DNA of 64,000 nucleotides, taken from Minisyncoccota bacterium (GTDB lineage Bacteria > Patescibacteriota > Minisyncoccia > Phycocordibacterales > UBA918). The translations under genes and the position numbers were made by a program. The notes under the pieces are model-generated. The model had not been told where the DNA came from and ran no database searches. It saw only the letters and a list, made by a program, of their open reading frames with translations. The DNA lies in contig JAIPIB010000004.1 in the NCBI GenBank assembly GCA_021734905.1, forward strand, positions 6,743-70,742, written 5' to 3'. Positions 6,546 through 61,819 of this stretch are shown piece by piece; the stretch's first letter is position 1; each line of letters starts with the position of its first letter.

Positions 6546-6548
6546 ATA

Positions 6549-7538: not shown

Positions 7539-7565
7539 ACCTATAGTTTATCACACGAGACAAGG

Positions 7566-8276: not shown

Positions 8277-8280
8277 AGAG

Positions 8281-10074
8281 TTATGGTGTGCCTAAAAGTT
8301 CTGCACGAGCTTGTTTAATTTGAAGAATTTGTGAAGGATCAGAGGTGATAATTTGATCTTCAGTGTATGAGGCAATAATTTTAATAGCAACATGTTTAAG
8401 ACCGACAAAGAAGATCCCCTCCCCTACTCCCGATTCAAGAAGCATAAATTTCTCTTCATCGGTAAGGTTGAAGACATCCTTAAGAGTATCAACCGCAGTT
8501 GGCGACTGTTTCATTAAGAGCTGAATGGAGGAGTTGGTAATCATCGGAACGCCATACGGTGAACGAAGAAAATCGTCAACATCCTGTGTGATTGTGGCAA
8601 GACCAAGATAATATTTTCGACCACGTTTAGCGATATTGTGAAGGAATGCGGCTGTGTCTTCTGACTTAAGCATCCACCAAGCTTCATCTATAACGAGAAG
8701 GCGTTTTTTTAATTCACGACGGACAGCCCCCCAGATATGATTTGTAATGATGTACATCGCGATAGTTTTCAGCTCTTCTTCCATGTCACGGAGTGAGAAA
8801 ACAACAAACTTTTGGTTGATGTCGACGTTTGTTGGCTCATTCATGAATCCAGACCATGTGCCTGAGGTGTATTTTGTAAGACGTTGGACAAGAGACTCAC
8901 TTCCCTCCATTCCAGCAAGAACCATTTCAAAATCAGAGAGGAGTGGCGGAGGGAGATCGCGATAATCACCCGACCCCGTTATGTCTTTTAGTGCGTATAC
9001 TTCATGGAGAGCTGTGTCGATAATAGCGTCTTCCTCAGGAGTAAGCCCCCCAAGCATAAGTTTAAAAAGCCCCACAAGTTCAATAATGTGTGAACGAAGT
9101 AGATCTTTCGGGTTCTCATCAGGAAGAGGAACAGGAAGATCAAAGGGGTTGATATGGTGATTTGATGAGAGAGAAATATTAAAAAATCTGCCTCCAGTAG
9201 CCTGTGCAAGATATTCATATTCATGTTCAGGGTCAATGACGAGTACTTCAGTACCAAACATGAGTGATCGGAGAATTTCGAGTTTAACTGCGTACGATTT
9301 TCCAGCACCAGATGTCGCAAAGGTCACTGAGTTGTAGTTGGTGAGAGAGAAACGGTCAAAAAGAACGAGCGAGCTGTTGTGTCGATTTACACCATAGAGT
9401 ATCCCCGTGTCTGATGTGAGATCAAAGGAGGTGAATGGAAAGAAACTTGAAAGAGGAGAGGAATTGAACTTACTGTGCACCATAAGTTTGTCTGAAAGAG
9501 TAGGAATGATGCTCCTGAAACCATCTTCTTGTTGAAAGAAAGCGGGCTTTATGTAGACCAATCGAGTGTCGAGCATTCCTTTTACTTCCCCTTCAATTTT
9601 GTTGAGTTCGGCTTCAGTATCCGCGTAGAGGGCAATATAAAGTCCAACATTAAAAAGCTTTTCCTCGGCTTGCTGGAGTTTGTCTCGAAGATCCTCGAGG
9701 TTGCGGTACGCAGCATCAAGTTGCGGATCTCTAACCATCCCCTTCTCGGCACGTTCATTGATTTGACTTTGCACTTCAGCTACCTTTTTTTGGAATTTCT
9801 TCAAGGTTTCGGCGGTATCAATAGGATGAATCACAATAGAGACATCGAGCTCACGTTCAATATTTAATACTGGCTCTAACCAACCATCATTGAGGTATCG
9901 TGGGTATGAAACTGCAAAAAAGATTCTAGAAAGCTTTCCGCTAATGTTAATGCTTTTTGGATTAACGCTAATTGCAGAGGGGGCAATAACGTCAGGTAAA
10001 GAAAGTGGCGCAGAATTAACCCCCTCTTCAAGGGCACCTTTTTTATTTTGTTGTATGAAATCAAAAAGCCCCAT
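8281..10074 (-). CDS. VirB4/TrbE-family conjugation or secretion ATPase, ATPase-domain portion
   Basis: 597 aa. Walker A-like FATSGAGKSYAV, Walker B-like LLVIDEAWWML, and a VirB4-typical motif (VLVIDPEHEYEYLAQATGGRFFNISL). Confidence 0.75.
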   Translation of the reverse strand: MGLFDFIQQNKKGALEEGVNSAPLSLPDVIAPSAISVNPKSINISGKLSRIFFAVSYPRYLNDGWLEPVLNIERELDVSIVIHPIDTAETLKKFQKKVAEVQSQINERAEKGMVRDPQLDAAYRNLEDLRDKLQQAEEKLFNVGLYIALYADTEAELNKIEGEVKGMLDTRLVYIKPAFFQQEDGFRSIIPTLSDKLMVHSKFNSSPLSSFFPFTSFDLTSDTGILYGVNRHNSSLVLFDRFSLTNYNSVTFATSGAGKSYAVKLEILRSLMFGTEVLVIDPEHEYEYLAQATGGRFFNISLSSNHHINPFDLPVPLPDENPKDLLRSHIIELVGLFKLMLGGLTPEEDAIIDTALHEVYALKDITGSGDYRDLPPPLLSDFEMVLAGMEGSESLVQRLTKYTSGTWSGFMNEPTNVDINQKFVVFSLRDMEEELKTIAMYIITNHIWGAVRRELKKRLLVIDEAWWMLKSEDTAAFLHNIAKRGRKYYLGLATITQDVDDFLRSPYGVPMITNSSIQLLMKQSPTAVDTLKDVFNLTDEEKFMLLESGVGEGIFFVGLKHVAIKIIASYTEDQIITSDPSQILQIKQARAELLGTP

Positions 10075-10163
10075 AATACGTTATCTCAAAGGTTAAACAA
10101 CCAATGATGAAATGTAACTACTCATAACTATATTATACATGGTTTGCTTTGGAACAAATTCCT

Positions 10164-10823
10164 CTATCGTTGCGGTGCATGGGATAGGTCTTCAGGATTA
10201 AATATATGATAGAAAAGCTCCGTGAGTTCCTCTGTGCCAAGAGGAGCCGTTCGAATACCGATTCTTGAAAGTCCTTGTTCAACAACAGAGACACGTTGGT
10301 CGAGTTGTGTACGGTCTTCAAAAAACTTATCTTGCGATTCAACGGGAGTTTTAACTTTTGGCCGTAAAAATTGCTTAATACCTTTTACCTCAAGATTTGA
10401 TGGTGTGTACGGGACGACAATAAAAAAGTTCTTCGTCATAATATCCACCTGGCTTGTGAATGTTTGGATAAATTCCATATATTCACGAAGTTGAATTTTC
10501 ATAAGATCATTGTCCTGAAGGGGCTGCCTTGAAGTAAGTACTTCAAGATAAGGACGAATATCGAGCCGTCTTGATTGGATATATATTTGAATAGAAAAAT
10601 CAATGGAATTTAAAAATGATTGAAATTGAGAAAGTATTGCCTGCTGTTCATCGGTCGATTTTAAAGCGAAGTTTATCGATGAGGCAAGGAGTACCATACA
10701 CATCTGACCATCCTTTAAAATAACCACATCATCATGGATGTCATTTATTGGGACGAACTGTTGTGTTGCATTTTGTGTTGCCATGATATTAATCAGCAGT
10801 AGGATTTTCGAGTTTATGAGCAA
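10164..10823 (-). CDS. VirB4 N-terminal domain encoded as a separate ORF (split or frameshifted VirB4)
   Basis: 219 aa. The motif pattern (PINDIHDDVVILKDGQMCMVLLASSINFALKSTDEQQAILSQFQSFLNSIDFSIQIYIQSRRLD) matches the conserved N-terminal region of VirB4/CagE/TraC ATPases. Summed with the 597 aa downstream ORF it gives ~816 aa, the typical VirB4 length. Confidence 0.5.
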   Translation of the reverse strand: MLINSKILLLINIMATQNATQQFVPINDIHDDVVILKDGQMCMVLLASSINFALKSTDEQQAILSQFQSFLNSIDFSIQIYIQSRRLDIRPYLEVLTSRQPLQDNDLMKIQLREYMEFIQTFTSQVDIMTKNFFIVVPYTPSNLEVKGIKQFLRPKVKTPVESQDKFFEDRTQLDQRVSVVEQGLSRIGIRTAPLGTEELTELFYHIFNPEDLSHAPQR

Positions 10824-11208
10824 GGGCCGTCAATGTGCGTTTTTGAGAAGGAAGAGAAGCTTCTTCCGAAGGAAGTTGAGGTGAAGATTTTGATGAGATA
10901 GTTTGCTCTTGCTCTTTCCTCCAAAAATACAACTTACTCTTGGTTGTATAATTGATAAAAGATTCTAAAAATATTGAGAAGGGTCGGTTGTTTATGCGAT
11001 GGAATGCAAGCGACGCAGAAAGAACTCCAAGTGGTACGCCGAACATAACAAAAAATATAAACGGAAGACTAATATAGAGCACAATAAGAGTTCCAGCACC
11101 GCCAGCGAGATAAATGAACTGACGCCATGTGAGGGGGCCAATGATTTTATCCTCGATCTCTATAAATTGTGGAACTTCAAATCGCATAGGTTTATTGTAC
11201 ATCATCAC
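10789..11208 (-). CDS. VirB3-like small two-TM membrane protein
   Basis: 139 aa with two adjacent hydrophobic helices (FIYLAGGAGTLIVLYISLPFIFFVMFGVPLGVLSASLAF). Its 3' end overlaps the VirB4 N-domain ORF, which is the usual VirB3-VirB4 order. Confidence 0.45.
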   Translation of the reverse strand: MMMYNKPMRFEVPQFIEIEDKIIGPLTWRQFIYLAGGAGTLIVLYISLPFIFFVMFGVPLGVLSASLAFHRINNRPFSIFLESFINYTTKSKLYFWRKEQEQTISSKSSPQLPSEEASLPSQKRTLTALAHKLENPTAD

Positions 11209-11240
11209 GGCACCCAGTCATGATGGATGTCTGGATTAAT

Positions 11241-11831
11241 TTATGAACTCTTCTCTTCAGTATCGTGAGTGGCGGCGCTTGTATTTTCCGTTTTAGTATC
11301 AGTGCCCTTGATTTGCTTAGAGTCACTTGCCATTGTCCGATTTGGTGCTAGAGCTTTAAGTACTTCTTCTCGGGTAAGGGGTTTTGGACCCACTCCCCCA
11401 CCACCGATTGGGGAACTTTCCCCTTTTGGCCAATGCTCAGTATGCCCACCATTCCCTTCCGTCACATCTGGAAGTGAAGTATTTTCCTCAAGTTCCTTCT
11501 TCCAGAGATATTCAAATGCTTGGAGGTCGTCAATGACTGGAGAAAGGACCAATGTTTCTATAAGTGTCGCAAGGTGCTCACTTGTTTCAAGTGAGAGAGA
11601 GGTGCTTTCTTGGATATGTTGAGTAAGCTCAAAAAGAGGAGAATAGAAAGTGAGGACAAGCATCACCTCGTTTTCTATTGACTCGTAGAGTGCCACATCC
11701 ACACTTTCAAATTCAAGGATATCGAGGAGCTCTTTTTTAAAAGATTGTGCAGAGACAATGGCATTACACTGTGGGTACTCAAGAAGACGTTTCTTGAGGA
11801 GGATTTCAGCTTCTTGGCGTGTTATTTCCAT
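11241..11831 (-). CDS. Acidic cytoplasmic protein of the T4SS-like operon
   Basis: 196 aa with no TM segments and a Gly-rich C-terminal tail. Translational coupling is suggested: its start ends 5 bp before the upstream gene's stop. Confidence 0.4.
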   Translation of the reverse strand: MEITRQEAEILLKKRLLEYPQCNAIVSAQSFKKELLDILEFESVDVALYESIENEVMLVLTFYSPLFELTQHIQESTSLSLETSEHLATLIETLVLSPVIDDLQAFEYLWKKELEENTSLPDVTEGNGGHTEHWPKGESSPIGGGGVGPKPLTREEVLKALAPNRTMASDSKQIKGTDTKTENTSAATHDTEEKSS

Positions 11832-11836
11832 AATGT

Positions 11837-13930
11837 TTAACTTTTATTTTTAAGCGCATCAACAAGGGCATCATTTCGAGCGTCTTCCTTTGTCTTCTTG
11901 ATCAGCTTGTTAAAAGCCTTTCGTATTGCTTTTCCAGCCGCGTGTTCATGAGACAGAAGACGCCCAACTGGCCATGTGGATAGGAAGTTGCTTTTTTCAA
12001 GAACCGCTGCGTATCCTTCAATACCTTGTGAGGAAATTTCTCGTTTGAGGTTAGTCGCCTGCTTTTCCATTGTCTCTATAAGACCACGGGCTAGCTTACG
12101 TTCTTCAGCATTAGTAATTTTCTTGAAATCATCCCATGATTTCTTAATGTCAGCTCGCAATTCCTTATACTTGTTCTTCATCTCGTCCGTTTTGCCAAAA
12201 TTGGTACTACCAAGGACGCGACGTTGCTTTTCTTGTTCATATTTCTGTTTGTTTTCTTTGATTGTATTTTCGATAGTTCTAATTGCTGTCCTCTGCGCTG
12301 CTCGTCCCGGGTCACCCTTAGGAAGGTCGTCAAGTTTTTCTTTAGCCCGCACAAGAGCAGCTTCGCCTGTTGTGACCAAATCCTTATACCGTGCCACAAC
12401 TGGATCCGTATCATCAACCTCACCTAAAGATTTAGCAAATTTCATCTCCTTTTCCTCAACTTCTTTTTTAACGGTTGTGTACCCGCCCTTCCTCCCATCT
12501 CCTATACCAAGTGCCCTTCCGACACCGCCGACATTCCGTGCATCAAATGAAGCGTCTCCTACAGCACGAGTCCCCTTAAGGGCGCGACGCGCCAAAAAGC
12601 CAACAGCACCTCTTTTGCTGGCGGTGTCTTTAAGAGATTCCCTTTCTGATATTTTATGTGCCCCCCATCCAATCGTTGCTCTTCCAGTACGTGCGGCGAG
12701 GCCAGCCGTCGTTGCACCAATCATTTCTTTTGTTTTACCAACCACCATGTCCCCGCCTTTGATTCCCATTTTTTGTGCAAGTTGGAGAGAGAAGATGAGG
12801 AACATGATGACGATAACAAAGTTGAGGATAACGTTGAGGCTTCCACTTCCGGTAAAAGCATTCACAAATGAGTCGCCCGAACTTATGTTAAGTGCCGCCG
12901 TTACTGAGGAAAGGACGGAAATGGAGATAAGGAGAAGGAGTAGGTATGCTGGAGCGAAGAAGGAGTAGCTTATGAGTTTTCCCCAAAGATTACCCGCCTG
13001 CGCTGCTGTTTTTGGAAAAACTGTTGCAGCAAAGAGAATTGGCGAAAAAATCATTATAAGAATGAGTGCAACAAAACGCACAATGAGAAGAACACCTCCT
13101 GCGGCAAGAACAAAGCCAGCTACGACAAGCATTATTGATGCCATGACATAGAACCAGAGACTGTTGTCAGACGTTAATCTATTGAGAACTTCGGGATTTT
13201 TTGGTTGTGTATAAAAAGTAGTGATTCCAAGCTGTTGGGCAAATTTTGAAGAAATGTCGCTGTCTCTTGTGTCAGAAATTATCGACGTATAAATTTGCGA
13301 TGCGGTGAGATTTGAGAAATCGATGACAACTTTTGTAAAGAAGAGACTGAAGTTAATAAGAAGCGCGCCAATAATAATTTTTGAAAGGATAGATTTAAAT
13401 GAAGAATTTCCAGGGTCAAGGATCGTCCGAATTCCGAGAAAAATGAATCCAAAAATGAAGGCGAGATTTGCAATATCACGGATAAGTTTCCATATATTGT
13501 TTACAGTCTCGCCAAGGGGCGATTTTGTCATTTTGTCACCCATTTTGAAGACCAGTTCTTCAACAGCTGTTTCAAGGATATTCCCACCGAGCCAAGTAAC
13601 CATCGCGGCTGTGGAGAGTATAGCAAGACCGAATTTTGCTTCCCATGAGGTAGAGGGAGCATTTCCTTCAGCCTTCGGAGCCGATGGCTTTGCCTTAGTA
13701 GCAGCGGGTGCAGCAGCAGCATTTCTTTTTGCAGCATCGGCAGTTACTTCAGTAGGATCCATATCTGCAATTTGTGCAGAGACGCGAGATGTTTGTAGAG
13801 AGATTGCCTGAGTGGAATTATTTGATGCAACTGCGAAAAGAGAGACAGACACTGGAGCAAAAATAATACAAAATACCAAAAACCCTGGAAGGATTTTTTT
13901 GAGTATCATGTTGTTTGTATTTTTTGTCAT
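11837..13930 (-). CDS. VirB6/TrbL-like polytopic inner-membrane protein
   Basis: 697 aa. It has a signal/anchor, an Ala-rich linker, at least six central hydrophobic helices, then a charged coiled-coil-like C-terminal third. This is the architecture typical of VirB6-family channel subunits. Confidence 0.5.
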   Translation of the reverse strand: MTKNTNNMILKKILPGFLVFCIIFAPVSVSLFAVASNNSTQAISLQTSRVSAQIADMDPTEVTADAAKRNAAAAPAATKAKPSAPKAEGNAPSTSWEAKFGLAILSTAAMVTWLGGNILETAVEELVFKMGDKMTKSPLGETVNNIWKLIRDIANLAFIFGFIFLGIRTILDPGNSSFKSILSKIIIGALLINFSLFFTKVVIDFSNLTASQIYTSIISDTRDSDISSKFAQQLGITTFYTQPKNPEVLNRLTSDNSLWFYVMASIMLVVAGFVLAAGGVLLIVRFVALILIMIFSPILFAATVFPKTAAQAGNLWGKLISYSFFAPAYLLLLLISISVLSSVTAALNISSGDSFVNAFTGSGSLNVILNFVIVIMFLIFSLQLAQKMGIKGGDMVVGKTKEMIGATTAGLAARTGRATIGWGAHKISERESLKDTASKRGAVGFLARRALKGTRAVGDASFDARNVGGVGRALGIGDGRKGGYTTVKKEVEEKEMKFAKSLGEVDDTDPVVARYKDLVTTGEAALVRAKEKLDDLPKGDPGRAAQRTAIRTIENTIKENKQKYEQEKQRRVLGSTNFGKTDEMKNKYKELRADIKKSWDDFKKITNAEERKLARGLIETMEKQATNLKREISSQGIEGYAAVLEKSNFLSTWPVGRLLSHEHAAGKAIRKAFNKLIKKTKEDARNDALVDALKNKS

Positions 13931-21378: not shown

Positions 21379-22905
21379 TTACGTCTTTACCCTAAAGTGC
21401 AAAGCTTCAAGCACATGTGTTTCTTTCAATTCGTCCGAATCCTCGAGGTCGGCTATAGTGCGCGCAACTTTAATAAGGCGATGATAGCTTCTTGGCGAGA
21501 GCTGAAGTTTTTGTGCTGATTGTTTGAGGAGCTCACTTACACTCTTGCCCAACTCAATACATTCTTCTATATCTCTCGCTGACATTTCGCCGTTTGTTGA
21601 TATCCCTCTACTGGTAAAGCGGATGCGCTCACGTTCACGGGCTCGAAGAATTCTGGCTCGGATCTCTTCAGTCTCATTCCGCTCTGATGTAGTGGTAGGA
21701 TCGCGTTTTTCAACAAGTGTTTCAAAATCGACATGAGGAACCTGAAGCCAAAGGTCAATGCGATCGAGGATTGGTCCTGAGATTTTGTTTTTGTACGTTT
21801 CAAGCATTTGTGCGGCGTAGTCATTGCCCGCATCTCCTCCTCGACTTGGATTCATTGCAGCAACAAGAATGAAGTCTGCTGGAAATATTGCTGTTGAATG
21901 AACGCGAGAAATTGACACCACTCGATCTTCAAGAGGTTGCCTGAGTGCGTCAATTGCACGTCTCTCAAACTCGGGAAATTCATCGAGAAAGAGTACTCCA
22001 TGATGTGCGAGCGTTACTTCACCTGGCTTTGGATGAGTTCCTCCTCCAACAAGGGCTGTGTAGGAAGCAGTGTGATGAGGAGATCGAAACGGAGGACGTG
22101 AAGAGACACCATTTCCAGTGCCAGCGACAGAGTGGATCGATGTGACTTCAAGCGCTTCATCTACCGAGAGTGGAGGAAGAATGCCTTGAAAAGCTCTAGC
22201 GAGCATCGTCTTCCCAGTGCCAGGTGGCCCGACCATTATGATGTTGTGTCGCCCTGCTGCAGCGATCATGAGTCCGCGTTTCGCAGATTCCTGCCCACGA
22301 ATATCTTCAAGACGAACAGTGGCATCATCCCAGAGAGTTGGAATTTGTGTCGGCGGCTCAGGCTCCTTGAGTACGTGGCCATCACGATGGGTGTCGATAT
22401 GCGAGATAACTTCCGACAGTGATCGTGCGGCAATAACTCGTATCCCTGGTATGAGAGCAGACTCCTCTCTGTTTTCGTACGGAACAATAATTTCAGAAAA
22501 ACCTTTGTCGCGTGCAGTTCGCACGATAGGAAGAACACCTCGAATCGGGCGCAATGCACCATCAAGGCCAAGCTCACCAATAAAAATAGTTTTTTCAATC
22601 TGAGCCTCGATTGAGCCTGAAGAAATGAGATAAGAAATTGCCATTGGAAGATCGAACAGCGGGCCGTCTTTTTTTAGGTCTGCTGGGGCAAGAGAAATAA
22701 TTACTCGATGGTTCTGACTCTTTGGCGATTTAAATCCAGAATTTTTTATAGCACTATTTACTCTGTCACGAGCTTCTTCGATTGCTTTTCCCGGGAGACC
22801 AACAACTGCAAATGAAAACAGACCTCGAGAGAGATCTGTTTCGATAGTGACAACGTCGGCTCCGATGAGTGATGGTTGTGCTGCGTATACTCGTGCAATG
22901 TTCAT
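21379..22905 (-). CDS. comM: Mg-chelatase-like AAA+ ATPase YifB/ComM
   Basis: 508 aa. N-terminal Lon-like domain, Walker A (MVGPPGTGKTMLA) and a C-terminal ChlI-like region. Confidence 0.85.
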   Translation of the reverse strand: MNIARVYAAQPSLIGADVVTIETDLSRGLFSFAVVGLPGKAIEEARDRVNSAIKNSGFKSPKSQNHRVIISLAPADLKKDGPLFDLPMAISYLISSGSIEAQIEKTIFIGELGLDGALRPIRGVLPIVRTARDKGFSEIIVPYENREESALIPGIRVIAARSLSEVISHIDTHRDGHVLKEPEPPTQIPTLWDDATVRLEDIRGQESAKRGLMIAAAGRHNIIMVGPPGTGKTMLARAFQGILPPLSVDEALEVTSIHSVAGTGNGVSSRPPFRSPHHTASYTALVGGGTHPKPGEVTLAHHGVLFLDEFPEFERRAIDALRQPLEDRVVSISRVHSTAIFPADFILVAAMNPSRGGDAGNDYAAQMLETYKNKISGPILDRIDLWLQVPHVDFETLVEKRDPTTTSERNETEEIRARILRARERERIRFTSRGISTNGEMSARDIEECIELGKSVSELLKQSAQKLQLSPRSYHRLIKVARTIADLEDSDELKETHVLEALHFRVKT

Positions 22906-28992: not shown

Positions 28993-29063
28993 GAATAAAA
29001 TTATACACGATTCCGTAGGCGCATTCTGTTATTGTGCGACACTCCTCATGTACTATATATAGT

Positions 29064-29990
29064 ATGAAACTATCTGAGCTCAAACGAGAATTTCTTGAGT
29101 ACTTAGAAATCGAAAAAGGACGAAGTATTCTTACGATTTCAAATTACGATAGATACTTGGCTCGGTTTTTGACGTATGCAAATACAGAAGATCCCCAAAA
29201 ACTCACGGAGCAGACTGTTAGAGAATATCGTCTCTGGCTTAATAGACAGCCTGGGACAAAAACAGGACGTCAGATTGATACTTTAAAACGAAAAACGCAA
29301 AACTACTACCTCATTGCACTCCGCGCATTCCTTAAGTACCTCCGAAAGCGGAGTATTGAATCACTTAACCCAGAACTTATTGAACTTGCGAAAGTTCCTG
29401 ATAGATCACTTGATCTCATCTCCACACAAGAACTTAACCGACTTATGGATGCGCCTGATGTAAACACTACTCGGGGACTTCGTGACCATGCCATACTCGA
29501 GCTTCTTTTTTCAACAGGGCTTCGTGTTTCTGAATTATGTTCGTTATCACAAGAGGATGTCGATCTTTCGCGAGATGAGTTTTCTGTTCGAGGAAAAGGA
29601 GACAAGGTTCGCGTCGTCTTTCTTTCTGACACAGCACGTAATGCAATCAAAGAATATTTGAAAGTGCGAAAGGACTTTGACGATGCAATGTTTGTTCAGT
29701 ATGGAAAAAATAGTAAAAAAGAGGAAGTGAAAAACAAAGACCTGCGACTTACTCCACGAAGTGTGCAACGTATTATTAAACAGTACGCAACGATTGCTGG
29801 CATTACGCGGAAAGTAACCCCGCATGTTATTCGACACTCTTTCGCCACTGACCTTCTCAGTAATGGCGCTGATATTCGTTCGGTGCAGGCGCTCCTCGGA
29901 CACGCCAATATTGCAACGACGCAAATATACACCCATGTCACTGACAAACACCTCCGCGACATCCACAAGAAATTTCATTCGCGGGGGTAA
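29064..29990 (+). CDS. xerC: Tyrosine recombinase XerC/XerD family
   Basis: Catalytic residues (RHSFATDLL...LGHANIATTQIYTHV) and an N-terminal core-binding domain. The start is taken at the ATG of MKLSELKREF; the ORF track start at 29034 adds 10 aa. Confidence 0.85.
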   Translation: MKLSELKREFLEYLEIEKGRSILTISNYDRYLARFLTYANTEDPQKLTEQTVREYRLWLNRQPGTKTGRQIDTLKRKTQNYYLIALRAFLKYLRKRSIESLNPELIELAKVPDRSLDLISTQELNRLMDAPDVNTTRGLRDHAILELLFSTGLRVSELCSLSQEDVDLSRDEFSVRGKGDKVRVVFLSDTARNAIKEYLKVRKDFDDAMFVQYGKNSKKEEVKNKDLRLTPRSVQRIIKQYATIAGITRKVTPHVIRHSFATDLLSNGADIRSVQALLGHANIATTQIYTHVTDKHLRDIHKKFHSRG

Positions 29991-39860: not shown

Positions 39861-39932
39861 GCACCCATAGTGAAATGGATATCATAACTGACTTCGGATC
39901 AGTCGTTGGGGGTTCGAGTCCCTCTGGGTGCA
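39861..39932 (+). tRNA. tRNA-Arg (anticodon TCG)
   Basis: Manual cloverleaf: acceptor GCACCCA/TGGGTGC, D-arm GTGA-AATGGATA-TCAT, anticodon stem ACTGA/TCAGT with loop CTTCGGA, T-arm GGGGG-TTCGAGT-CCCTC, discriminator A. No CCA is encoded. Confidence 0.85.
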
Positions 39933-40064
39933 CAAAATGCCAAGCGCAACACGAAAGTGTTGCGCTTGTTGCGTTTTGGCACTCAGAGGGACTCGAGAAG
40001 GTTGCCAGCTATTTTGTAAAAATAGCGACAACCTGTACTGAAACTGTAAGTTTCGAGTCCCTCC
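39929..40064 (+). repeat. tRNA-linked structured repeat unit, copy 1 (136 bp)
   Basis: Begins in the last 4 nt of tRNA-Arg. It contains a terminator hairpin with a GAAA loop, an antisense copy of the tRNA 3' half (GGCACTCAGAGGGACTCGAG), a nested core (AGGTTG...CAACCT with GCTATTTT/AAAATAGC inside) and a sense copy of the T-arm (TTTCGAGTCCCTCC). It is 135/136 identical to copy 2. Confidence 0.85.
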
Positions 40065-40246: not shown

Positions 40247-41410
40247 ATGATAAGAAAACTTAAGTTCAAAAACTTTTATTCCTTTAAGGAAGAGCAGGTT
40301 CTAGATTTCACTGTTACCAAGAAGAAAAGTGACGAATACTATGAATCTCTTGACGGAACTCAAATAAGCAAAGTGATGGCTTTTGTTGGTCCGAATGCTT
40401 CTGGAAAAACAAGTGTCATGAAGTTGTTTGGGTTTCTGAGCTATTTTCTTACATCAGCTTCCAGAGATATCAAAGATACAAATGACACTGGCTTTAACCA
40501 ATATGCATTTTCAAAACCAGAAACAAGCCTTTTGAGTATAGAATTTGAGACTGCTGAAAATCTATTTACTTATGAATTAGAGTTAGACCCTAAACAGGTA
40601 TACCAAGAAACACTTCATAAGAAGATTTTAAAGAAACGAGCACGACCCCTCTTAGTCTTCCATCGAACAATTGAGGGAGTTGAACTAAATAAAAAAGTTC
40701 TTAAAAATATTCCCAAAAAACAACTTGCGTTGTTGCGAAGTGACATTTCCTTAATTGCTTTTTTAAAAGCTAACTTTGATGTGCCGATAATTAATGAAGT
40801 ATATGAATATTTCAATTTATGGTTTGCAAATAATATAAACGAGTCAGGGTATATTGCTTCCCCAGAAACTAAAATGGACGATGCTGCGCAAAGTTACTTA
40901 AAGATTCCGTCATTGAAAGAAAAAATGGAAGAATTTATTAGAAACTTTGATGTTGGAATTGATAAGTTTCTTATTGAAAAGATAGATAGCAAAATTGTAA
41001 TTAAAGGCTGTCATAAAATTAATGACAAAGAACATAATATTCCTTTCCAGTATGAATCTCGTGGCACAAAAACGTTATTTGTAGATTTACTCCCTATTCT
41101 AGGAGGGTTAGAAATTGGAAATTGCTTAATAATTGATGAAATTGAAACAGGACTTCATCCTCAGGCGGTTGATAAATTAATAAGCTATATCGTAGATCAC
41201 ATAAGAAGATCAAAAAAACAGTTTATTTTTTCCTCTCACTCTTTTAACTTTTTAGAGTTATTCGATGCACCACAAATTTATTTAGTTGAAAAGAATGAAA
41301 ACAAAAGTGAAGTCTTTAGATTAGACTCTCTAGGTGTACGACCAGATGAGAATTTCTACTCTAAATATATGAGTGGTGCTTATGGCGCATTTCCTAAAAT
41401 AAGAGTGTAA
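40247..41410 (+). CDS. AAA_21/ABC-type ATPase, AbiLi/OLD-N-terminal-like (putative abortive-infection ATPase)
   Basis: 387 aa. RecF/SMC-like N-terminus (IRKLKFKNFYSFKEE), Walker A (GPNASGKTS), Walker B (LIIDEIETGLHP) and a signature-like FSSHS motif. Confidence 0.7.
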   Translation: MIRKLKFKNFYSFKEEQVLDFTVTKKKSDEYYESLDGTQISKVMAFVGPNASGKTSVMKLFGFLSYFLTSASRDIKDTNDTGFNQYAFSKPETSLLSIEFETAENLFTYELELDPKQVYQETLHKKILKKRARPLLVFHRTIEGVELNKKVLKNIPKKQLALLRSDISLIAFLKANFDVPIINEVYEYFNLWFANNINESGYIASPETKMDDAAQSYLKIPSLKEKMEEFIRNFDVGIDKFLIEKIDSKIVIKGCHKINDKEHNIPFQYESRGTKTLFVDLLPILGGLEIGNCLIIDEIETGLHPQAVDKLISYIVDHIRRSKKQFIFSSHSFNFLELFDAPQIYLVEKNENKSEVFRLDSLGVRPDENFYSKYMSGAYGAFPKIRV

Positions 41411-41412
41411 AT

Positions 41413-41883
41413 ATGAAAGTTCGCCAAATAAAGAAAATGTGCCTCTTGTTTGGCGAAGGCGGGAAAGAAGAAATCTTCTTTCGGTTCTTAGAAAACAGTA
41501 ACAGGTTCAAGAATCGCTTCCCGGATTGGGGAATAGAAATGTCGCATGCGTCTGGGGAAGCGTGCTCAGTTATACTTCAAAAATGTATAAATTTCACATC
41601 CAAGCGTGGTTTCGATTTGGTAATATGCTTTATTGATACAGATAAACTGCAAGAACATGGAAGTCGAAGTGAAGAAGAAAAGAATCGTTTAGAACAGTTA
41701 GCAACAGAACACAGGATTAAAATAATATGGCAAGATCCTGACCATGAGTCAGAGTTAAGTAGGGCTACAAATGGTCGAATAAAAGGAAAAGCTGGTATGC
41801 GGCGGCGGCTAGAAAATAACCTTCAAGCTATCTCAAAAAGCGCTTTTATCCGTAGGATTTTCGCCTTTTTCCCAAATGAGTAA
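41413..41883 (+). CDS. DUF4276/RloB-like small TOPRIM-like protein (putative AbiLii-like partner)
   Basis: 156 aa. The N-terminal LLFGEGGKEEIFFRFL fits the EGxTE-type motif and ICFIDTD supplies a DxD motif. It starts 2 bp after the ATPase gene stop, suggesting translational coupling. Confidence 0.5.
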   Translation: MKVRQIKKMCLLFGEGGKEEIFFRFLENSNRFKNRFPDWGIEMSHASGEACSVILQKCINFTSKRGFDLVICFIDTDKLQEHGSRSEEEKNRLEQLATEHRIKIIWQDPDHESELSRATNGRIKGKAGMRRRLENNLQAISKSAFIRRIFAFFPNE

Positions 41884-41917: not shown

Positions 41918-42053
41918 TGCACAAAATGCCAAGCGCAACACGAAAGTGTTGCGCTTGTTGCGTTTTGGCACCCAGAGGGACTCGAGAAGGTTGCCAGCTA
42001 TTTTGTAAAAATAGCGACAACCTGTACTGAAACTGTAAGTTTCGAGTCCCTCC
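41918..42053 (+). repeat. tRNA-linked structured repeat unit, copy 2 (136 bp direct repeat of 39929-40064)
   Basis: One mismatch to copy 1 (GGCACCCAGAGGG here versus GGCACTCAGAGGG). This copy has the perfect antisense match to the tRNA-Arg 3' half. Together with copy 1 it brackets the two-gene cargo. Confidence 0.85.
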
Positions 42054-45018: not shown

Positions 45019-45681
45019 ATGATACGCAAATCTGCACAGTATGAACAGGCAAAAGAACTACGAATGCGTGGTTTTACATACGCCGAGGTTGCAAAGATTG
45101 TCGGTGTCGCTAAAAGCACTGTTTCTCTATGGTTTTCACGTGAAACATGGTCTGCGAATGTTGCAGAAGACAACACGAAACGTGCGGCGAAGGAAAATAA
45201 AAAACGTATTACTCTTCTAAACAAAGCCCGAAGTAACCAATTTAGAAAGCTCTATACGGAAGCTGAGCGTTCAGCAACTACAGAATTTAAACATTATAAG
45301 AGCAATCCCCTTTTTATAGCTGGTCTTATGCTTTACTTGAGTAAGGGGGATCATTCAAACAGTCCAGTGATTTGTATTTCAAGCTCACGTAAGGAAATTC
45401 ATCGCTTATTCATTAGGTTTTCAACTGAATTTCTTGGTGTTCAAAAAGAAAAAATGAGATTTTGGTTATTACTTAATTCAAGCCATTCAGCCGAGACATG
45501 TTCACGTTCATGGTCGAAGGAGATAGGTCTTTCCGTGAAACAGTTTCACAAGAATCAGATTACTAAGAACAATAATATAGGTAGTACATTGCATGATGGT
45601 GTTGGAAATACTATAATCGGAGGCACACTCATGAAGAAAAAGCTTCAGAAGTGGGTTGAAACAGCTCTTTTGGAGCTGTAG
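45019..45681 (+). CDS. Hypothetical protein with N-terminal helix-turn-helix
   Basis: 220 aa. HTH-like GFTYAEVAKIVGVAKSTVSLWF. It lies immediately upstream of tRNA-Gly(GCC), in the accessory region. Confidence 0.45.
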   Translation: MIRKSAQYEQAKELRMRGFTYAEVAKIVGVAKSTVSLWFSRETWSANVAEDNTKRAAKENKKRITLLNKARSNQFRKLYTEAERSATTEFKHYKSNPLFIAGLMLYLSKGDHSNSPVICISSSRKEIHRLFIRFSTEFLGVQKEKMRFWLLLNSSHSAETCSRSWSKEIGLSVKQFHKNQITKNNNIGSTLHDGVGNTIIGGTLMKKKLQKWVETALLEL

Positions 45682-45690
45682 ATCACATAT

Positions 45691-45761
45691 GCGGCCATGG
45701 TTAAGTGGTATAACGAGTCCTTGCCAAGGATTAGTCGGGGTTTCGATTACCCCTGGCCGCA
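45691..45761 (+). tRNA. tRNA-Gly (anticodon GCC)
   Basis: Manual cloverleaf: acceptor GCGGCCA/TGGCCGC, anticodon stem AGTCC/GGATT with loop TTGCCAA, T-arm GGGGT-TTCGATT-ACCCC, discriminator A. Confidence 0.85.
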
Positions 45762-46260
45762 CAAAATGCCCCGAAAGGGGTTTTTCTGTGGCCAGGAGAA
45801 AGGTGCCGTGCACCTTTCGTGGTAATCGAAACCGCCGGAACGATGTGAGGTACGAACAAGTGAGGCGTGACCCGTGGCACTTATGAGCGTAGCGAATTAG
45901 TGACCATCAGGTTTCAATTACCCCTGGCCGCACCATTAGATAAGTCGGGCTTTTGCCCGGCTTTTCTAATGGTGGTGGGTAATTGAAAAAGCTTTTAAGT
46001 TAGATTGTGAGGCGTATGCCGAAGCAATCTAGCCAAAAGGTGTACTGAAGCAGTATGCTTTCGATTCTTCTTACAGAAGCTGTCTACTTTGCGGGTGTGG
46101 AACACCTCACAAAGTCTTGCGGAATGATGTTAAATCATTCCTCACCCTGGCCACACCATGTGTAGAATAGGCGGGAGGCTGTGAGACCGCAAAGTGGAGC
46201 TAACAGTGAAATGCCGACTCATAGTACAATTACCCAAGTAACCACCCTTTCCACGGGTGG
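45762..46260 (+). repeat. tRNA-Gly(GCC)-linked repeat region with several sense and antisense copies of the tRNA 3' half
   Basis: Begins CAAAATGCC, as the tRNA-Arg unit does, then a terminator hairpin (CCCCGAAAGGGGTTTTT). Antisense tRNA pieces follow (TGTGGCCAGG, GGTAATCGAAACC, GGGTAATTGAAA). Sense copies are TTTCAATTACCCCTGGCCGCAC near 45915-45937 and CCTGGCCACACCA near 46138. Confidence 0.6.
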
Positions 46261-49352: not shown

Positions 49353-49689
49353 GAATAAGGAACACTGAAACTTACAGTTTCAGTACCCATTCAGGATAAT
49401 CTTCTTCGCTTCACTCGAAAAGATATCTCTGAATAGCTTCAGTTCCATATTGTCGTGGAGTCAGGGATCTTTCATTACATGAACGGTTCAGGTTGTATGA
49501 CCGTTTCTTCTTTTAGTATTTGTCGGGGAGCCGGGTGAGACAGTCCTGGAGGCTGTCGCAAGACCTTGAGCAGTTGTTGCGAAAGGTGTACAGCGTCTGT
49601 AAGACGGAATCCGGACCACTCCTTTCTCCGAAAGCCACAATAATCTCCCAGATTATTGGTTCAATTTGGTGTCTTTGTCCTAGTCTGGG

Positions 49690-49760
49690 TCGGGGAGCCG
49701 GGAATCGAACCCGGACCACTCGGTCCCAAACCGAGTACACTACCACTATGCTACACCCCG
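49690..49760 (-). tRNA. tRNA-Pro (anticodon TGG)
   Basis: Minus-strand cloverleaf with anticodon stem CTCGG/CCGAG and loop TTTGGGA, T-arm CCGGG-TTCGATT-CCCGG and a 3' acceptor CTCCCCG+A. One T:T mismatch in the acceptor stem (position 6:67) and a 3-bp D-stem lower the confidence. Confidence 0.65.
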
Positions 49761-49804
49761 ACCAAGACAGGGACGAGATCTAAGACCAAGACACCAAACT
49801 GAAC

Positions 49805-49841
49805 CCCAAACCGAGTACACTACCACTATGCTACACCCCGA
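49805..49841 (-). repeat. 37-bp exact duplicate of the tRNA-Pro 5' half (acceptor through anticodon loop), 44 bp upstream of the gene
   Basis: CCCAAACCGAGTACACTACCACTATGCTACACCCCGA occurs at 49725-49761 (within the tRNA) and again at 49805-49841. The tRNA 3' end (TCGGGGAGCCGGG) is also copied at 49524-49536. Confidence 0.8.
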
Positions 49842-49854
49842 TGCAGCGAGAGAA

Positions 49855-61193: not shown

Positions 61194-61303
61194 GTTGTCA
61201 TTGATTGTATCATGGGGTTTAAAGTGGGAACTGTTTATGCTAGAATCATCCGGGATAAGTGTGTGATGGTTGTGGCGACTATTTCACTGTATCTTCTTCA
61301 CTC

Positions 61304-61374
61304 GCGGGTGTAGTTTAGTGGTAAAACGACTGCCTTCCAAGCAGTAGTTGGGGGTTCGATTCCTCTCGCCCGCA
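61304..61374 (+). tRNA. tRNA-Gly (anticodon TCC)
   Basis: Manual cloverleaf: acceptor GCGGGTG/CGCCCGC, anticodon stem ACTGC/GCAGT with loop CTTCCAA, T-arm GGGGG-TTCGATT-CCTCT, discriminator A. Confidence 0.85.
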
Positions 61375-61553
61375 CATTTGAAAGACCGCCTTAGGGCGGT
61401 TTTTCAGTGTGCGGGCGAAGCAACCTGCTGGGAGCAGGTTGCGCGAGGAATCGAAAAGGTTGTCAGATATTTTAGGAACGAAGTAAACTAAAATATCGAC
61501 AACCTGTACTGACCATGTAATGGTCGATTCCTCTCGCCCGCACAAACTGTAAG
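61375..61553 (+). repeat. tRNA-linked structured repeat unit at tRNA-Gly(TCC), same family as the tRNA-Arg units
   Basis: Terminator hairpin (GACCGCC/GGCGGT plus T5). Antisense tRNA 3' half (TGTGCGGGCGA...GAGGAATCGAAA) split by a 9-bp hairpin. Core AGGTTGTC...GACAACCT enclosing GATATTTTA/TAAAATATC. Then GTACTGA and an exact sense copy of the tRNA 3' end (TCGATTCCTCTCGCCCGCACA) at 61533-61553. Confidence 0.8.
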
Positions 61554-61819
61554 ACTCAAAAATTAGATGTACTTTCAGCAATTTGATTGCAATATAAAAA
61601 CCCCTCACAAGGGGGTTTTTATAGTGGTGGGAACTAATGGATGTATACCCATCGTCTCCTTGATAGCGTTACTTGGTGTACATGTACCAAGTTAATACCT
61701 CCGCTATAAATACATGATAACATTTTTTTAATAAAAACAAATATGGGGATAAAGTTTTATGTGTCTGAAATATAAAATCCCCGCAGGCATAAGCCTGCGG
61801 GGATTTTAAAAGGAGAAGA

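Follow-up and report, generated by a model that had tools for sequence, protein, structure and literature searches.

A family of tRNA-matched, covarying units behind tRNA genes of Patescibacteria with the appearance of an insertable cassette

Results and discussion

Downstream of the tRNA-Gly(TCC) gene in the 64,000-nt stretch of DNA analysed here (the window), we identified a structured unit of a large family of which the databases and literature searched have no record; it looks like a small insertable cassette and not like a fixed part of the gene. Using a pattern scan and a covariance model, we found ~140 units in ~100 Patescibacteria loci. Nearly all of them are located 17-90 nt downstream of a tRNA, whatever its isotype; their arms match this tRNA and, in essentially all loci, they are oriented as it is. 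The element is phylum-wide, modular and rapidly exchanged, has at least two unrelated cores, and is not a local duplication common to two tRNAs. A simple tandem duplication without conservation elsewhere, named in the preliminary description as an alternative, is ruled out by the occurrence of units in many other Patescibacteria loci. We place at about 0.45, somewhat short of an even chance, the probability that a non-autonomous cassette has been inserted at the T-loop of the tRNA and that it corresponds to a small circle with a dumbbell fold, opened into linear form at this site in the manner of CTXphi attP or integron attC.

Anatomy of the unit behind tRNA-Gly(TCC)

The tRNA-Gly(TCC) gene (61304-61374/5, on the forward strand, as are all features of its unit) was identified by ARAGORN and by the Rfam tRNA model (72 bits). 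It has no encoded CCA end; its T-loop, TTCGATT, is located at 61355-61361 and its discriminator, A, at 61374. A promoter-like sequence, TTTAAA-17-TAGAAT, was observed near the gene at 61218-61246. On the 3′ side of the tRNA, the unit consists, in this order, of a terminator-like hairpin, a split antisense copy of the tRNA end, a three-way core (AAGGTT..AACCT, GTAC and TGAnnnnGTAnnnnTCGA) and an exact 21-nt sense copy. The latter closes a direct repeat with a period of 168 bp: positions 61356-61376 (S), which start in the T-loop and end 2 nt beyond the tRNA 3′ end, recur unchanged downstream as the sense copy TCGATTCCTCTCGCCCGCACA at 61524-61544 (S_R).

Based on its sequence and predicted folds, the terminator-like hairpin, AAAGACCGCC-TTAG-GGCGGTTTTT (61381-61404), is preceded by an A-tract and followed by a T-run (5 T), although the T-run rule of a simple terminator scan did not flag it. 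This hairpin is the tip of a long palindrome formed by S and the antisense copy (S′), which is unbroken from the tRNA acceptor via the trailer and the terminator into S′. Nearly all units of the family have a GC hairpin and a T-run in the same position. A second terminator-like hairpin, CCCCTCACAAGGGG, also followed by a T-run, is located at 61601-61621 and is a candidate for the original terminator of the tRNA, which the insertion would have pushed downstream. The features of an intrinsic terminator, i.e., a GC-rich hairpin with a T-run, were found at 61381-61404 and 61601-61621 only, and not in the rest of the unit.

The first part of S′, TGTGCGGGCGA (61408-61418), is antisense to the acceptor 3′ strand, the discriminator and CA, and it covaries with the tRNA in a relative's locus, L142 (TGTGCGGGTGA versus ..CACCCGCACA in the tRNA). 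The second part, GAGGAATCGAA (61445-61455), is antisense to the T-loop and the T-stem 3′ strand, and forms helix P1. Together, TGTGCGGGCGA and GAGGAATCGAA provide 22 nt that are complementary to TTCGATTCCTCTCGCCCGCACA of tRNA-Gly(TCC); thus, both the 22-nt antisense copy and the exact sense copy of the preliminary description were confirmed by their coordinates. The acceptor and T-stem portions of the antisense arm are split by a side hairpin, P0, with sequence GCAACCTGC-TGGGA-GCAGGTTGC (61420-61442). L142 has an orthologous P0 hairpin, and the loop YTGGGAR is seen again in many units.

The three-way core starts with P2 (61457-61505), in which alignment, alifold and pair counts delimited a conserved base, AGGTT/AACCT, and a variable, covarying inner hairpin. 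P2 is followed in the alignment of units by a conserved GTAC at the three-way junction (61506-61509), which is unpaired, and by P3, TGACCAT-GTA-ATGGTCG (61510-61526), which has a GTA triloop and four variable pairs, all of which covary family-wide. The invariance of GTAC and of the GTA loop among the units of the pattern scan is a result of selection because the scan required both; in units that only the model detected, ATAC or TATAC also occurs in place of GTAC, while the GTA loop is also present in two model-found units of the window (45976-46072 and 49357-49447).

Fold and covariation

The RNA fold of 61376-61560 has a free energy of -98.1 kcal/mol (z = -12.4), and none of 200 shuffles was as good; the DNA fold that includes the tRNA 3′ part has a z of -13.5. 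The minimum free energies of both strands are equal. When circularly permuted, the module folds as a rod (-94 kcal/mol, z = -13.5).

The unit behind tRNA-Gly(TCC) scored 95 bits (E = 6e-24) against a covariance model of 94 units which, together with the alignment, supports the earlier proposal that it is of the same family as the unit behind tRNA-Arg and matched to its own tRNA. Covariation is strong in three helices, and the junction nucleotides are highly conserved. Over the 94 units, 90.5% of the helix cells are paired, compared with 75% in shuffled alignments and 33-47% with partners slid; double-change cells numbered 318, versus 110 in shuffles. The conserved fold with real covariation that had been proposed from two units is, in this respect, well founded, although the detail of that proposal was correct in part. 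Covarying changes had been claimed for both inner stems; GCTATTTT/AAAATAGC versus GATATTTT/AAAATATC does contain one true compensatory pair, whereas in AGGTTGCC versus AGGTTGTC, both of which face an identical GACAACCT, only one side is altered, from C.A to T-A, which is not compensatory. The clearest case had been overlooked: TGA-AACT-GTA-AGTT-TCG in the Arg unit versus TGA-CCAT-GTA-ATGG-TCG in the Gly unit, with three two-sided pair changes. Additionally, the conserved TGTAAG of the preliminary description matches at 61548, outside the unit, where its actual counterpart is the GTA loop (61517-61519) inside; the single-stranded string in which it had been placed reduces to GTAC (61506-61509), with CCT and TGA located in helices.

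A second core (type 2), unrelated to the one described above (type 1), occupies the same slot in other units and also covaries. In the helices, the mismatches G.T and A.C are about equally frequent (51 versus 37 in P1; 41 versus 67 in the inner P2), and an early impression of a large excess of G.U over A.C, obtained with few alignment columns, failed once all helix columns were counted. The loops of the units are mostly GNA triloops, and the mini-hairpins GCGAAGC and ACGAAGT recur. Such triloops and mini-hairpins are typical of stable DNA hairpins.

Match of the arms to the neighbouring tRNA

For 90 of the 153 tRNAs of the fetched loci, the 200 nt downstream contain an antisense copy of 9 nt or more, compared with 3 in the upstream control flanks; many tRNAs and some genomes are without a unit. 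S′ pairs better with the live tRNA end and trailer in 42 loci and with S_R in 5, while both are equal in 11. Moreover, S′ follows the substitutions of the tRNA between relatives, by 1 nt between the window and L142 and by 2 nt between loci L181 and L184.

Over the 27 nt compared, i.e., the tRNA end and a few trailer bases, S and S_R are identical in at least 21 positions in 39 of 58 loci, and in all 27 in 6. S_R is often truncated after the T-stem, as in L142, L098, L109 and copy 1 of the Arg unit in the window, and it sometimes ends in CCA when the live gene does not (45910-45935 in the window, L131, L162 and L197). In some loci (L088, L144 and L173), S_R contains a small junction hairpin, which suggests that the downstream helix matters too.

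Other members of the family in the window

The module downstream of tRNA-Arg is present twice on the forward strand as a 136-bp repeat that includes the terminator, the antisense arm, a type-1 core and part of S_R. Copy 1 (39929-40064; covariance-model match at 39986-40064, 88.9 bits) and copy 2 (41918-42053), which has one mismatch to copy 1, flank a cargo at 40247-41883 that encodes an AAA_21 ATPase and an RloB-like protein. The old 3′ ends within this array (AACCTGC and CTGCCAC) do not fit the acceptor of the present tRNA-Arg, and its terminator is homologous to the tRNA-Gly(TCC) terminator of L181 and L184.

After tRNA-Gly(GCC), a module with a type-2 core is located at 45789-45935 of the forward strand; it comprises an antisense arm, a side hairpin, CGGAACGATG..GAGGCGTGACC..GTGACC and a sense copy ending in CCA. 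This module is 83% identical to that of L186 at tRNA-Gly(TCC), with the arms fitted to each tRNA. The model also detected diverged type-1 cores as second element of the tRNA-Gly(GCC) array (45976-46072, forward strand, 35.6 bits, E = 1.5e-7) and downstream of tRNA-Pro(TGG) (49357-49447, reverse strand, 34.3 bits, E = 3.4e-7).

Exchange and replacement among relatives

Relatives whose RNase Y is 86-89% identical have the same gene order and a differing module content: type 1 only in the window, type 2 plus type 1 in L181 and L184, and type 2 only in L186. In L181, the older type-1 unit is separated from the tRNA by a newer module, and in L186, S′ matches S_R and not the live tRNA. Presence and absence also vary among metagenome contigs with an identical 25-nt tRNA end, of which 9 of 11 carry differing modules and 2 of 11 carry none. 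L193 and L196 have S, the terminator and S′ in common, with a type-2 core in one and a type-1 core in the other, while L188 and L193 have the downstream flank in common and different modules. Modules are shuffled between tRNA loci and replaced within them. Tandem arrays of units were found in L073, L150 and L165, and arrays interleaved with cargo in the Arg locus of the window and in L148.

The module at tRNA-Gly(TCC) is old; it is common to the window and L142, whose flanking proteins are just 46-77% identical, and compensatory changes are present between the two. The cargo of relatives starts inside or directly after S_R, and the tRNA is left intact. The idea that the unit marks an acceptor site fits these relatives, which have differing cargo genes right after the downstream tRNA-end copy (L142 and L181-L186).

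Searches for an enzyme, known families and a promoter

At the gathering score, Rfam detected four tRNAs only in the whole window, and permissive scans of 61250-61700 and 45650-46250 with Rfam 15, whose models include hammerhead, twister, pistol, hatchet and tRNA-like RNAs, returned matches at chance level only. In a hammerhead, three stems meet at a junction where CUGANGA links stem I to stem II and GAAA links stem II to stem III, and stem I is preceded by a cleavage triplet. Manual mapping of this or another ribozyme onto the unit alignment failed on junction order and register: the unit does contain GAAA and GUA/CUGA, yet GUA runs directly into CUGA, which leaves no place for stem I, and the 15.1-16.1 pair is out of register. 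As a promoter for the unit itself, the sole match lies inside P2, whose stem length varies between units; the module stands directly behind the terminator, with no space for a promoter.

Copies on phages or plasmids, suggested earlier as recombination partners, were looked for by blastn against phage and plasmid collections, which found nothing, and by a pattern scan of IMG/VR, whose 56 matches were all unrelated sequences without the matching hairpin. When 882 ORFs from ~100 loci were clustered, only housekeeping families recurred near units, and no recombinase, HUH nuclease or transposase did. In the window, no recombinase adjoins the units, whose neighbouring ORFs are accessory or housekeeping genes, and a Y1 (HUH) transposase is absent among the 40 ORFs scanned against Pfam. 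The sole tyrosine recombinase of the window (29034-29990) lies ~10 kb away from any unit; by its scores it is of Xer type, and it does not reach the cut-offs for integron integrases (133 versus 265 bits).

The element is not described in the databases and literature searched, including a study of group I introns in the tRNAs of Patescibacteria (PMC13011429).

Insertion at the T-loop and its alternatives

The direct repeat that brackets the module is the signature of an insertion into the tRNA gene with its 3′ end restored. In the reading that we favour, the module would be the 168 bp at 61356-61523, comprising S, the trailer and terminator hairpin, S′ with P0, and the structured core; S (61356-61376) would be the portion of the tRNA that the module supplies, and S_R (61524-61544) the displaced original 3′ end of the gene. 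The locus would then read as the tRNA 5′ part, followed by S, terminator, S′ and core, followed by S_R, which is exactly the layout expected if a small circle of S, terminator, S′ and core recombined with the tRNA gene inside the T-loop. By this event, the tRNA would acquire a new working 3′ end and terminator, while the old 3′ end would be shifted downstream as S_R. As a single strand, the circle would form a dumbbell in which the S:S′ stem copies the 3′ duplex of the tRNA gene and the ends are closed by the terminator hairpin on one side and by the three-way core on the other; the joining point, between P3-TCGA and the T-stem, would be located at the junction of this fold. The predicted circle junction leads from P3 into S, between ...ATGG and TCGATTCCTCTCGCCCGCACATTTG, and the predicted empty site is GGGGGTTCGATTCC...GCACAAACTG. 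Repetition of T-loop and tRNA-end sequences would make the locus a hot spot, in which modules are stacked, swapped and replaced and cargo builds up beside S_R.

We infer the circular intermediate, the T-loop crossover and the single-stranded DNA form from this layout, and the Xer-family recombinase at 29034-29990 is only a candidate for the enzyme. S_R behaves as a displaced relic, as indicated by its truncations, by CCA ends that mismatch the live gene and, here, by the second terminator that follows it. The cassette reading is also favoured by the better pairing of S′ with the live tRNA end, the exchange and modular make-up of the units, their arrays, the stable fold of the circular permutation, the two unrelated covarying cores in one slot, the loop types and the position behind a terminator with no space for a promoter. 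Nevertheless, the S_R of the window is still identical to S despite the age of the module, for which a pure relic does not account. Against a cassette also stand the absence of a recombinase beside the units and the failure to find a circle, an excision junction or the predicted empty site: no small contig with terminal overlap, circular form or excision junction was seen, and a 30-mer search of metagenomes for the empty-site junction of this species had no match. The match of S′ to S_R in L186, the old 3′ ends of the Arg array that do not fit the present acceptor, and the junction hairpin of some S_R copies count against it too. The model also leaves unexplained by which route S′ comes to fit a new tRNA, and replacement between S and S_R could result from ordinary homologous recombination of imported DNA as well. 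In a more specific version, which we regard as distinctly doubtful, the antisense arm (~22-30 nt) would be a programmable guide that pairs, as single-stranded DNA or RNA, with the sense strand of a chosen tRNA 3′ end, and the core, of type 1 or type 2, would be catalytic or would recruit a recombinase; such gene-less mobile modules would seed cassette arrays by tRNA-addressed integration, with no integrase in cis. Two other accounts of the palindrome were rejected: an inversion model, in which recombination between inverted T-loops keeps S′ equal to the reverse complement of S, since an inversion would leave the tRNA interrupted by the P0 insertion, and a fold-back or hairpin-opening origin because the palindrome centres are asymmetric loops.

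A different reading, which we consider unlikely although it deserves more weight than those that follow it, is that of a functional structured RNA, transcribed by read-through of the tRNA terminator and acting on or with the cognate tRNA or pre-tRNA. Its shape would be that of a tRNA-like top half, with acceptor and T-stem helices formed with S_R or the tRNA, P0 in the place of the D and anticodon arms, and the three-way junction in that of the T-loop; possible roles include an RNase P/RNase Z processing or punctuation signal, an antisense regulator of the pre-tRNA 3′ end and a small self-cleaving ribozyme. The covariation of three helices around highly conserved junction nucleotides is what such an RNA would show, as is the conservation of the tRNA-Gly(TCC) module, with compensatory changes, between distant relatives. 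The type-2 core, covarying in the same context, would represent an interchangeable class, and different self-cleaving ribozyme classes share contexts likewise. The orientation of the units and an antisense arm complementary to the tRNA 3′ end plus trailer, i.e., to the precursor, point in the same direction. The position of the unit directly behind a terminator-like hairpin and T-run does not, there being no room for a promoter and no promoter-like match other than that in the length-variable P2 stem, nor do the empty sites and the wholesale replacement among close relatives, which indicate that the unit is not essential. G.U and A.C mismatches show no strand asymmetry, GNA triloops and not GNRA tetraloops predominate, and neither Rfam, with all known ribozyme classes, nor the hammerhead mapping by hand gave a match.

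Two further explanations appear improbable to us. The units could be passive, CIME-like scars of integrase-carrying islands or prophages at tRNA 3′ ends, i.e., attL/attR with a piece of arm left after deletion of the integrase and cargo; islands linked to tRNA genes typically have direct repeats of the tRNA 3′ end, accrete in tandem and lie next to accessory or defence-like genes. However, the same compact architecture is present in ~140 units with no integrase nearby, compensatory changes preserve its structure across the classes of the phylum, unlike what decaying scars would show, ordinary attP arms have no inverted target copy, and the IMG/VR, phage and plasmid collections contain no match. 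With just as little probability, the unit would be a feature of the host DNA, either an extended bidirectional terminator or insulator palindrome or a decoy landing pad, whose S_R would imitate the attB site used by tRNA-targeting elements and divert incoming DNA to a position behind the tRNA and not inside it. In favour of such a feature are the palindrome, which extends without a break from the acceptor across trailer and terminator to S′, and the cargo of relatives, which begins inside or right after S_R, next to an intact tRNA; nevertheless, the conserved three-way cores, their two classes and the rapid exchange of modules would be left unexplained, and the many tRNAs and some genomes that do without a unit also argue against it.

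Relationship to known systems

A close parallel to the cassette reading is the attP(+) of CTXphi-type IMEX. CTXphi is a phage whose single-stranded DNA forms a hairpin attP and is integrated by the host XerCD at dif. In both cases, the target is present in two inverted copies with ~70-100 nt of spacer between them, and the single strand can be folded into a duplex mimic of the target; S′ lies 66-100 nt from S or S_R and the folding z is -12 to -13.5, in agreement with the inverted-sites hairpin of these elements. The predicted integration product (target-left, then copy, rest, inverted copy and spacer, then target-right) has the order of the module, and the catalyst is encoded elsewhere in the host, as we propose for the module. 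Unlike CTXphi, the module has the tRNA T-loop or 3′ end as its target and not dif, is ~140-170 bp long with no genes and no Rep protein, and has a conserved three-way structure as spacer; its single-stranded form is a prediction, and the use of Xer is hypothetical.

The cassettes of integrons are bounded by core sites R″/R′, with consensus RYYYAAC ... GTTRRRY. Like attC sites, the units are imperfect palindromes in which structure is conserved over sequence, and folding as a single strand and recognition in trans may be presumed by analogy; as in integron arrays, units can separate short gene cassettes (the Arg locus of the window and L148), while most are solitary and without a cassette. In contrast, the unit alignment has no R/L box GTTRRRY, the boundaries are those of the tRNA T-loop and T-stem, TCGATTCC..., no intI, attI or Pc is adjacent, the arms are derived from the neighbouring tRNA, and the core has long invariant motifs.

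The modules resemble tRNA-targeting islands, CIMEs and tycheposon-like islands in their proposed insertion at the tRNA 3′ part, by which the gene is regenerated and a partial copy of it displaced, in their accretion in tandem, in their accessory or defence cargo and, here and family-wide, in direct repeats of the tRNA 3′ end. They differ in being miniature, in having no integrase in cis, an inverted target copy and a covarying core, and in existing in a version for nearly every isotype. REP/REPIN elements (RAYT) and the ends of IS200/IS605 are also short, gene-less, intergenic palindromes behind genes, with a hairpin and an adjacent conserved tetranucleotide, to which P3 with TCGA at its foot and the conserved GTAC bear a resemblance; yet such elements insert without target duplication, and here a target repeat of ~21-27 nt is present. 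Mobilisation in trans as single strands would be a further likeness, proposed for the module. Unlike the case of these elements, no RAYT/TnpA was found in the window, the copies are not near-identical, and each unit is matched to one tRNA by ~22 nt. Finally, guide-bearing elements, such as group II introns (EBS/IBS) and IS110 (bridge RNA), carry a complement of their flanking target, as S′ does for the tRNA end and trailer. However, Rfam detected neither a group II intron nor any further known RNA family at the unit loci, no reverse transcriptase or IS110 (DEDD-type) transposase was present in the scanned ORFs of the window or recurrent near units, and the complementarity of the module, ~22-30 nt, is also self-paired within the unit.

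If the cassette reading is true, the T-loops of many tRNA genes in a phylum with reduced genomes receive small structured cassettes, which are stacked there and exchanged for one another; this would explain why accessory and defence genes concentrate at the tRNA loci of Patescibacteria. Integron attC and CTXphi attP would then be joined by a folded-hairpin recombination site that is addressed to tRNA genes, which would point to an enzyme acting in trans. If, instead, the RNA reading is right, the two cores would be new covarying motifs with tRNA-matched arms and potential ribozymes or processing signals. The units may also contribute to assembly breaks near such loci. In either case, the covariance model is a ready annotation marker for these loci.

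In the assembly of this organism, breaks near unit loci were observed in three contigs.

Anatomy and fold of the unit behind tRNA-Gly(TCC)

The tRNA-Gly(TCC) gene, recognized by ARAGORN and Rfam, occupies positions 61304-61374/5 of the window and is followed by a terminator-like hairpin, AAAGACCGCC-TTAG-GGCGGTTTTT (61381-61404). Downstream lies an antisense arm, S′, which is split by a side hairpin, P0 (61420-61442), into TGTGCGGGCGA (61408-61418), antisense to the acceptor 3′ strand, and GAGGAATCGAA (61445-61455), antisense to the T-loop and T-stem. The core consists of the P2 helix, with its conserved base AGGTT/AACCT (61457-61505), an unpaired GTAC (61506-61509) and the small P3 hairpin, TGACCAT-GTA-ATGGTCG (61510-61526). 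A sense copy of the tRNA 3′ end, S_R (61524-61544), repeats 61356-61376 exactly over 21 nt, giving a direct-repeat period of 168 bp. Folded as RNA, the unit reaches -98.1 kcal/mol (z = -12.4), much stabler than shuffled sequences; as DNA, together with the 3′ part of the tRNA, it scores z = -13.5 against shuffles.

The preliminary description of this unit, which reported antisense parts, an exact sense copy and a conserved fold, was right in substance, since these parts are found at defined coordinates and shuffled sequences fold much less stably. Its interpretation, a repeat-unit family with a fold under selection and perhaps an empty acceptor site, is supported in part. One of the two stems said to covary does so, while the other is changed on one side only, and the TGTAAG string at 61548 that was taken as the match is not part of the unit, its true counterpart being the GTA loop of P3. 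Three pairs of the P3 stem are altered on both sides when the Arg and Gly units are compared.

Units behind tRNA genes in Patescibacteria

Units of this kind follow all four tRNA genes of the window. A pattern scan with CCTGTACTGANNNNGTANNNNTCRA, using one genome per species, returned at least 120 loci, about 100 of which are genuine units whose P3 arms are complementary. Among the matches listed, essentially all real units carry a Patescibacteria label (Paceibacterota, 'Saccharibacteria', Nomura-, Kaiser-, Taylor- and Campbellbacteria). The few matches in other phyla either have no hairpin or lie in bins labelled Patiriisocius or Acidimicrobiales; as these bins also contain several further unit-bearing contigs, we suspect that the contigs concerned are mis-binned Patescibacteria.

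In an alignment of 94 units, 90.5% of the cells in helices P1 (the T-loop/T-stem helix of S′), P2 and P3 were paired, compared with 75.3% after shuffling and 33-47% when the partners were slid, and double-change cells numbered 318 vs 110 in shuffles. The covariance model detected 5 units in the window and 139 in 100 loci, nearly all located 17-90 nt downstream of a tRNA of any isotype, on the same strand. A test independent of the core agrees with this picture: an antisense copy of the tRNA's own 3′ end, at least 9 nt long and at most 200 nt downstream, was present for 90 of 153 tRNAs, against 3 in the upstream control flanks.

Some tRNAs have both arms and no core of this first type. In its place, flanked by the antisense and sense copies of the tRNA end, they carry a structured and unrelated type-2 core, CGGARCGATG .. 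GAGNCGGGG .. GTGACC, found in the window at 45789-45935 and in 13 other loci. Across 14 examples, 19 of its 21 predicted pairs show compensatory changes. Neither core matched Rfam, no relative of the unit was found in IMG/VR or in phage and plasmid collections, and the element was nowhere described in the literature searched.

Partner of the antisense arm

The best partner of S′ is the live tRNA 3′ end with its trailer in 42 loci and S_R in 5, with a tie in 11. The complementarity continues across the trailer and reaches the terminator stem. Where relatives differ in the tRNA acceptor, S′ differs correspondingly (1 nt between the window and locus L142; 2 nt between L181 and L184). Locus L186 is an exception, in which S′ matches S_R. 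The downstream copy is frequently truncated past the T-stem, and it sometimes has a CCA where the live gene has none. Between TCGAN and the T-stem of this copy, some units carry a mini-hairpin of ~14 nt (e.g., AAGCGTACTCGCGG or AAGGCGAAGCCGG) and others a 2-nt insertion at the same point (TCGAG-AC-TCC); these features, observed in nine loci, could reflect variation of the junction or be scars left by crossover.

Turnover and exchange of modules

Relatives of the window were picked by their RNase Y (86-89% identity), independently of the motif. They share the gene order protease, tRNA-Gly(TCC), units, variable genes, HU and RNase Y, and despite this shared order their unit content varies. The window has type 1 only and L186 has type 2 only; L183 has type 2 and a type-1 variant, and in L181 and L184 an inserted type-2 module separates the tRNA from a truncated, window-like type-1 unit. 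The genes between S_R and HU are different in each genome (L142, L181-L186). Searching metagenomes with the 25-nt tRNA 3′ end yielded 11 contigs, of which 9 contain differing modules and 2 (L190 and L191) contain none.

The modules recombine with one another. Contigs L193 and L196 have the tRNA 3′ end, terminator and S′ in common, followed by a type-2 core in L193 and a type-1 core in L196; the two diverge at the antisense T-loop. L188 and L193 have different modules and a common downstream flank. The tRNA-Gly(GCC) module of the window is 83% identical to the tRNA-Gly(TCC) module of L186, each with arms fitted to its own tRNA, and the terminator of the window's tRNA-Arg is homologous to the tRNA-Gly(TCC) terminator of L181 and L184. 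Arrays are either tandem or interleaved with cargo. Two 136-bp module copies (39929-40064 and 41918-42053), one mismatch apart, enclose what looks like a defence gene pair (40247-41883), encoding an AAA_21/AAA_15 ATPase together with a small RloB-like protein. The two old tRNA-end remnants in the Arg array (..AACCTGCACA and ..CTGCCACACA) are unlike the present tRNA-Arg acceptor.

In L088, the Gly(TCC), Pro(TGG), Arg(TCG) and Gly(GCC) tRNAs lie within ~1.5 kb; in the window the same four are spread over 21 kb (39861-61375), with many genes between them. Three further assemblies of this organism break off within a few hundred bases of tRNA-module loci, two near window position 61790, ~240 nt beyond S_R, and one, on the tRNA-Arg side, ~170 nt from the CCA-enzyme gene; thus, the repeats may contribute to assembly breaks.

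Origin and level of action

Our best explanation, to which we assign a probability of about 0.45, is that the 168 bp are an inserted module composed of S (the tRNA 3′ end from the T-loop onward), terminator, S′ and core, derived from a small circle that was linearized within the T-loop. A linear permutation of such a circle would give the order tRNA 5′ part, S, terminator, S′, core and S_R; the working tRNA 3′ end and terminator would come from the module, and S_R would be the former end of the gene, pushed downstream. In single-stranded form, the circle would fold into a dumbbell (predicted at -94 kcal/mol, z = -13.5), whose S:S′ stem would copy the 3′-end duplex of the tRNA gene and whose joining point would lie at a three-way junction. 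The CTXphi attP hairpin and integron attC sites follow the same logic, and their recombinase is encoded elsewhere. The circle would account for the match of S′ to the left copy, the decay or ancestral CCA of S_R, the second terminator present after S_R at tRNA-Gly(TCC), the position of newer modules nearest the tRNA (L181) and the module breaks at T-loop sequences. It does not explain the fit of S′ to a new tRNA, the S′-S_R match of L186, the odd acceptors of the Arg array or the enzyme.

Alternatively, the unit could be a structured RNA made by read-through, with a tRNA-like top half and a three-way junction, serving as a processing signal, antisense regulator or ribozyme. Constant orientation, conserved junction nucleotides and two interchangeable cores keep this doubtful alternative alive. 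The helices contain G.T and A.C mismatches at about the same frequency, and the two strands fold equally well. GNA triloops and GCGAAGC-type mini-hairpins are hallmarks of stable DNA hairpins; the former predominate in the unit loops and the latter recur. Because of these loops, the location directly behind a terminator with no promoter space and the dispensability of the units, we lean towards action at the DNA level, probably single-stranded.

That the units are passive scars of ordinary integrase-bearing islands seems very unlikely, as no recombinase family was found to recur near units. The genes adjoining the units of the window are accessory or housekeeping. We give equally little credence to a role on the side of the host, as a palindromic terminator or a decoy landing pad. 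Each known family considered fails at least one defining feature; attachment sites that fold into hairpins and miniature integrative elements of the non-autonomous type come closest by analogy. That the modules form an integration system of a new kind, bearing a guide and addressed to tRNAs, is an unlikely reading.

Recombinases and other features of the window

Searches for a circular form among small contigs and for an exact empty-site junction of this species found neither. The sole recombinase seen in the window, an Xer-family tyrosine recombinase (29034-29990, + strand; 263 bits with the XerD model and 241 bits, above the cut-off, with the XerA model), lies ~10 kb from the nearest unit and is a candidate trans-acting enzyme for the modules.

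The first ~37 nt of tRNA-Pro (49686-49761), up to the anticodon loop, are duplicated ~55 nt upstream (about 49800-49842, - strand), perhaps as the trace of another event, one that took place at the anticodon loop. At 49520-49640, a pseudo 3′ half of the same tRNA has its T-loop split by a ~70-nt insert that reads core-like on the opposite strand (GAAAGGT-GTAC-AGCGTCT-GTA-AGACG), so that a putative core-like element lies reversed inside a T-loop copy. Directly upstream of tRNA-Gly(GCC), a 220-aa protein (45019-45681, + strand) has only an N-terminal HTH, weakly matched by resolvase- and transposase-type models; this arrangement is kept in L108 (45% identity). The left end of the window carries dnaN and dnaA (129-2894) and the cumulative GC skew climbs along the window, as expected if a replication origin lies close by. 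A type IV secretion-like cluster with a pilin, a VirB4/TraG-like ATPase and a VirB6/TrbL-like protein, together with a ComM-like protein of the Mg-chelatase family, is found at 5796-13930 and 21379-22905.
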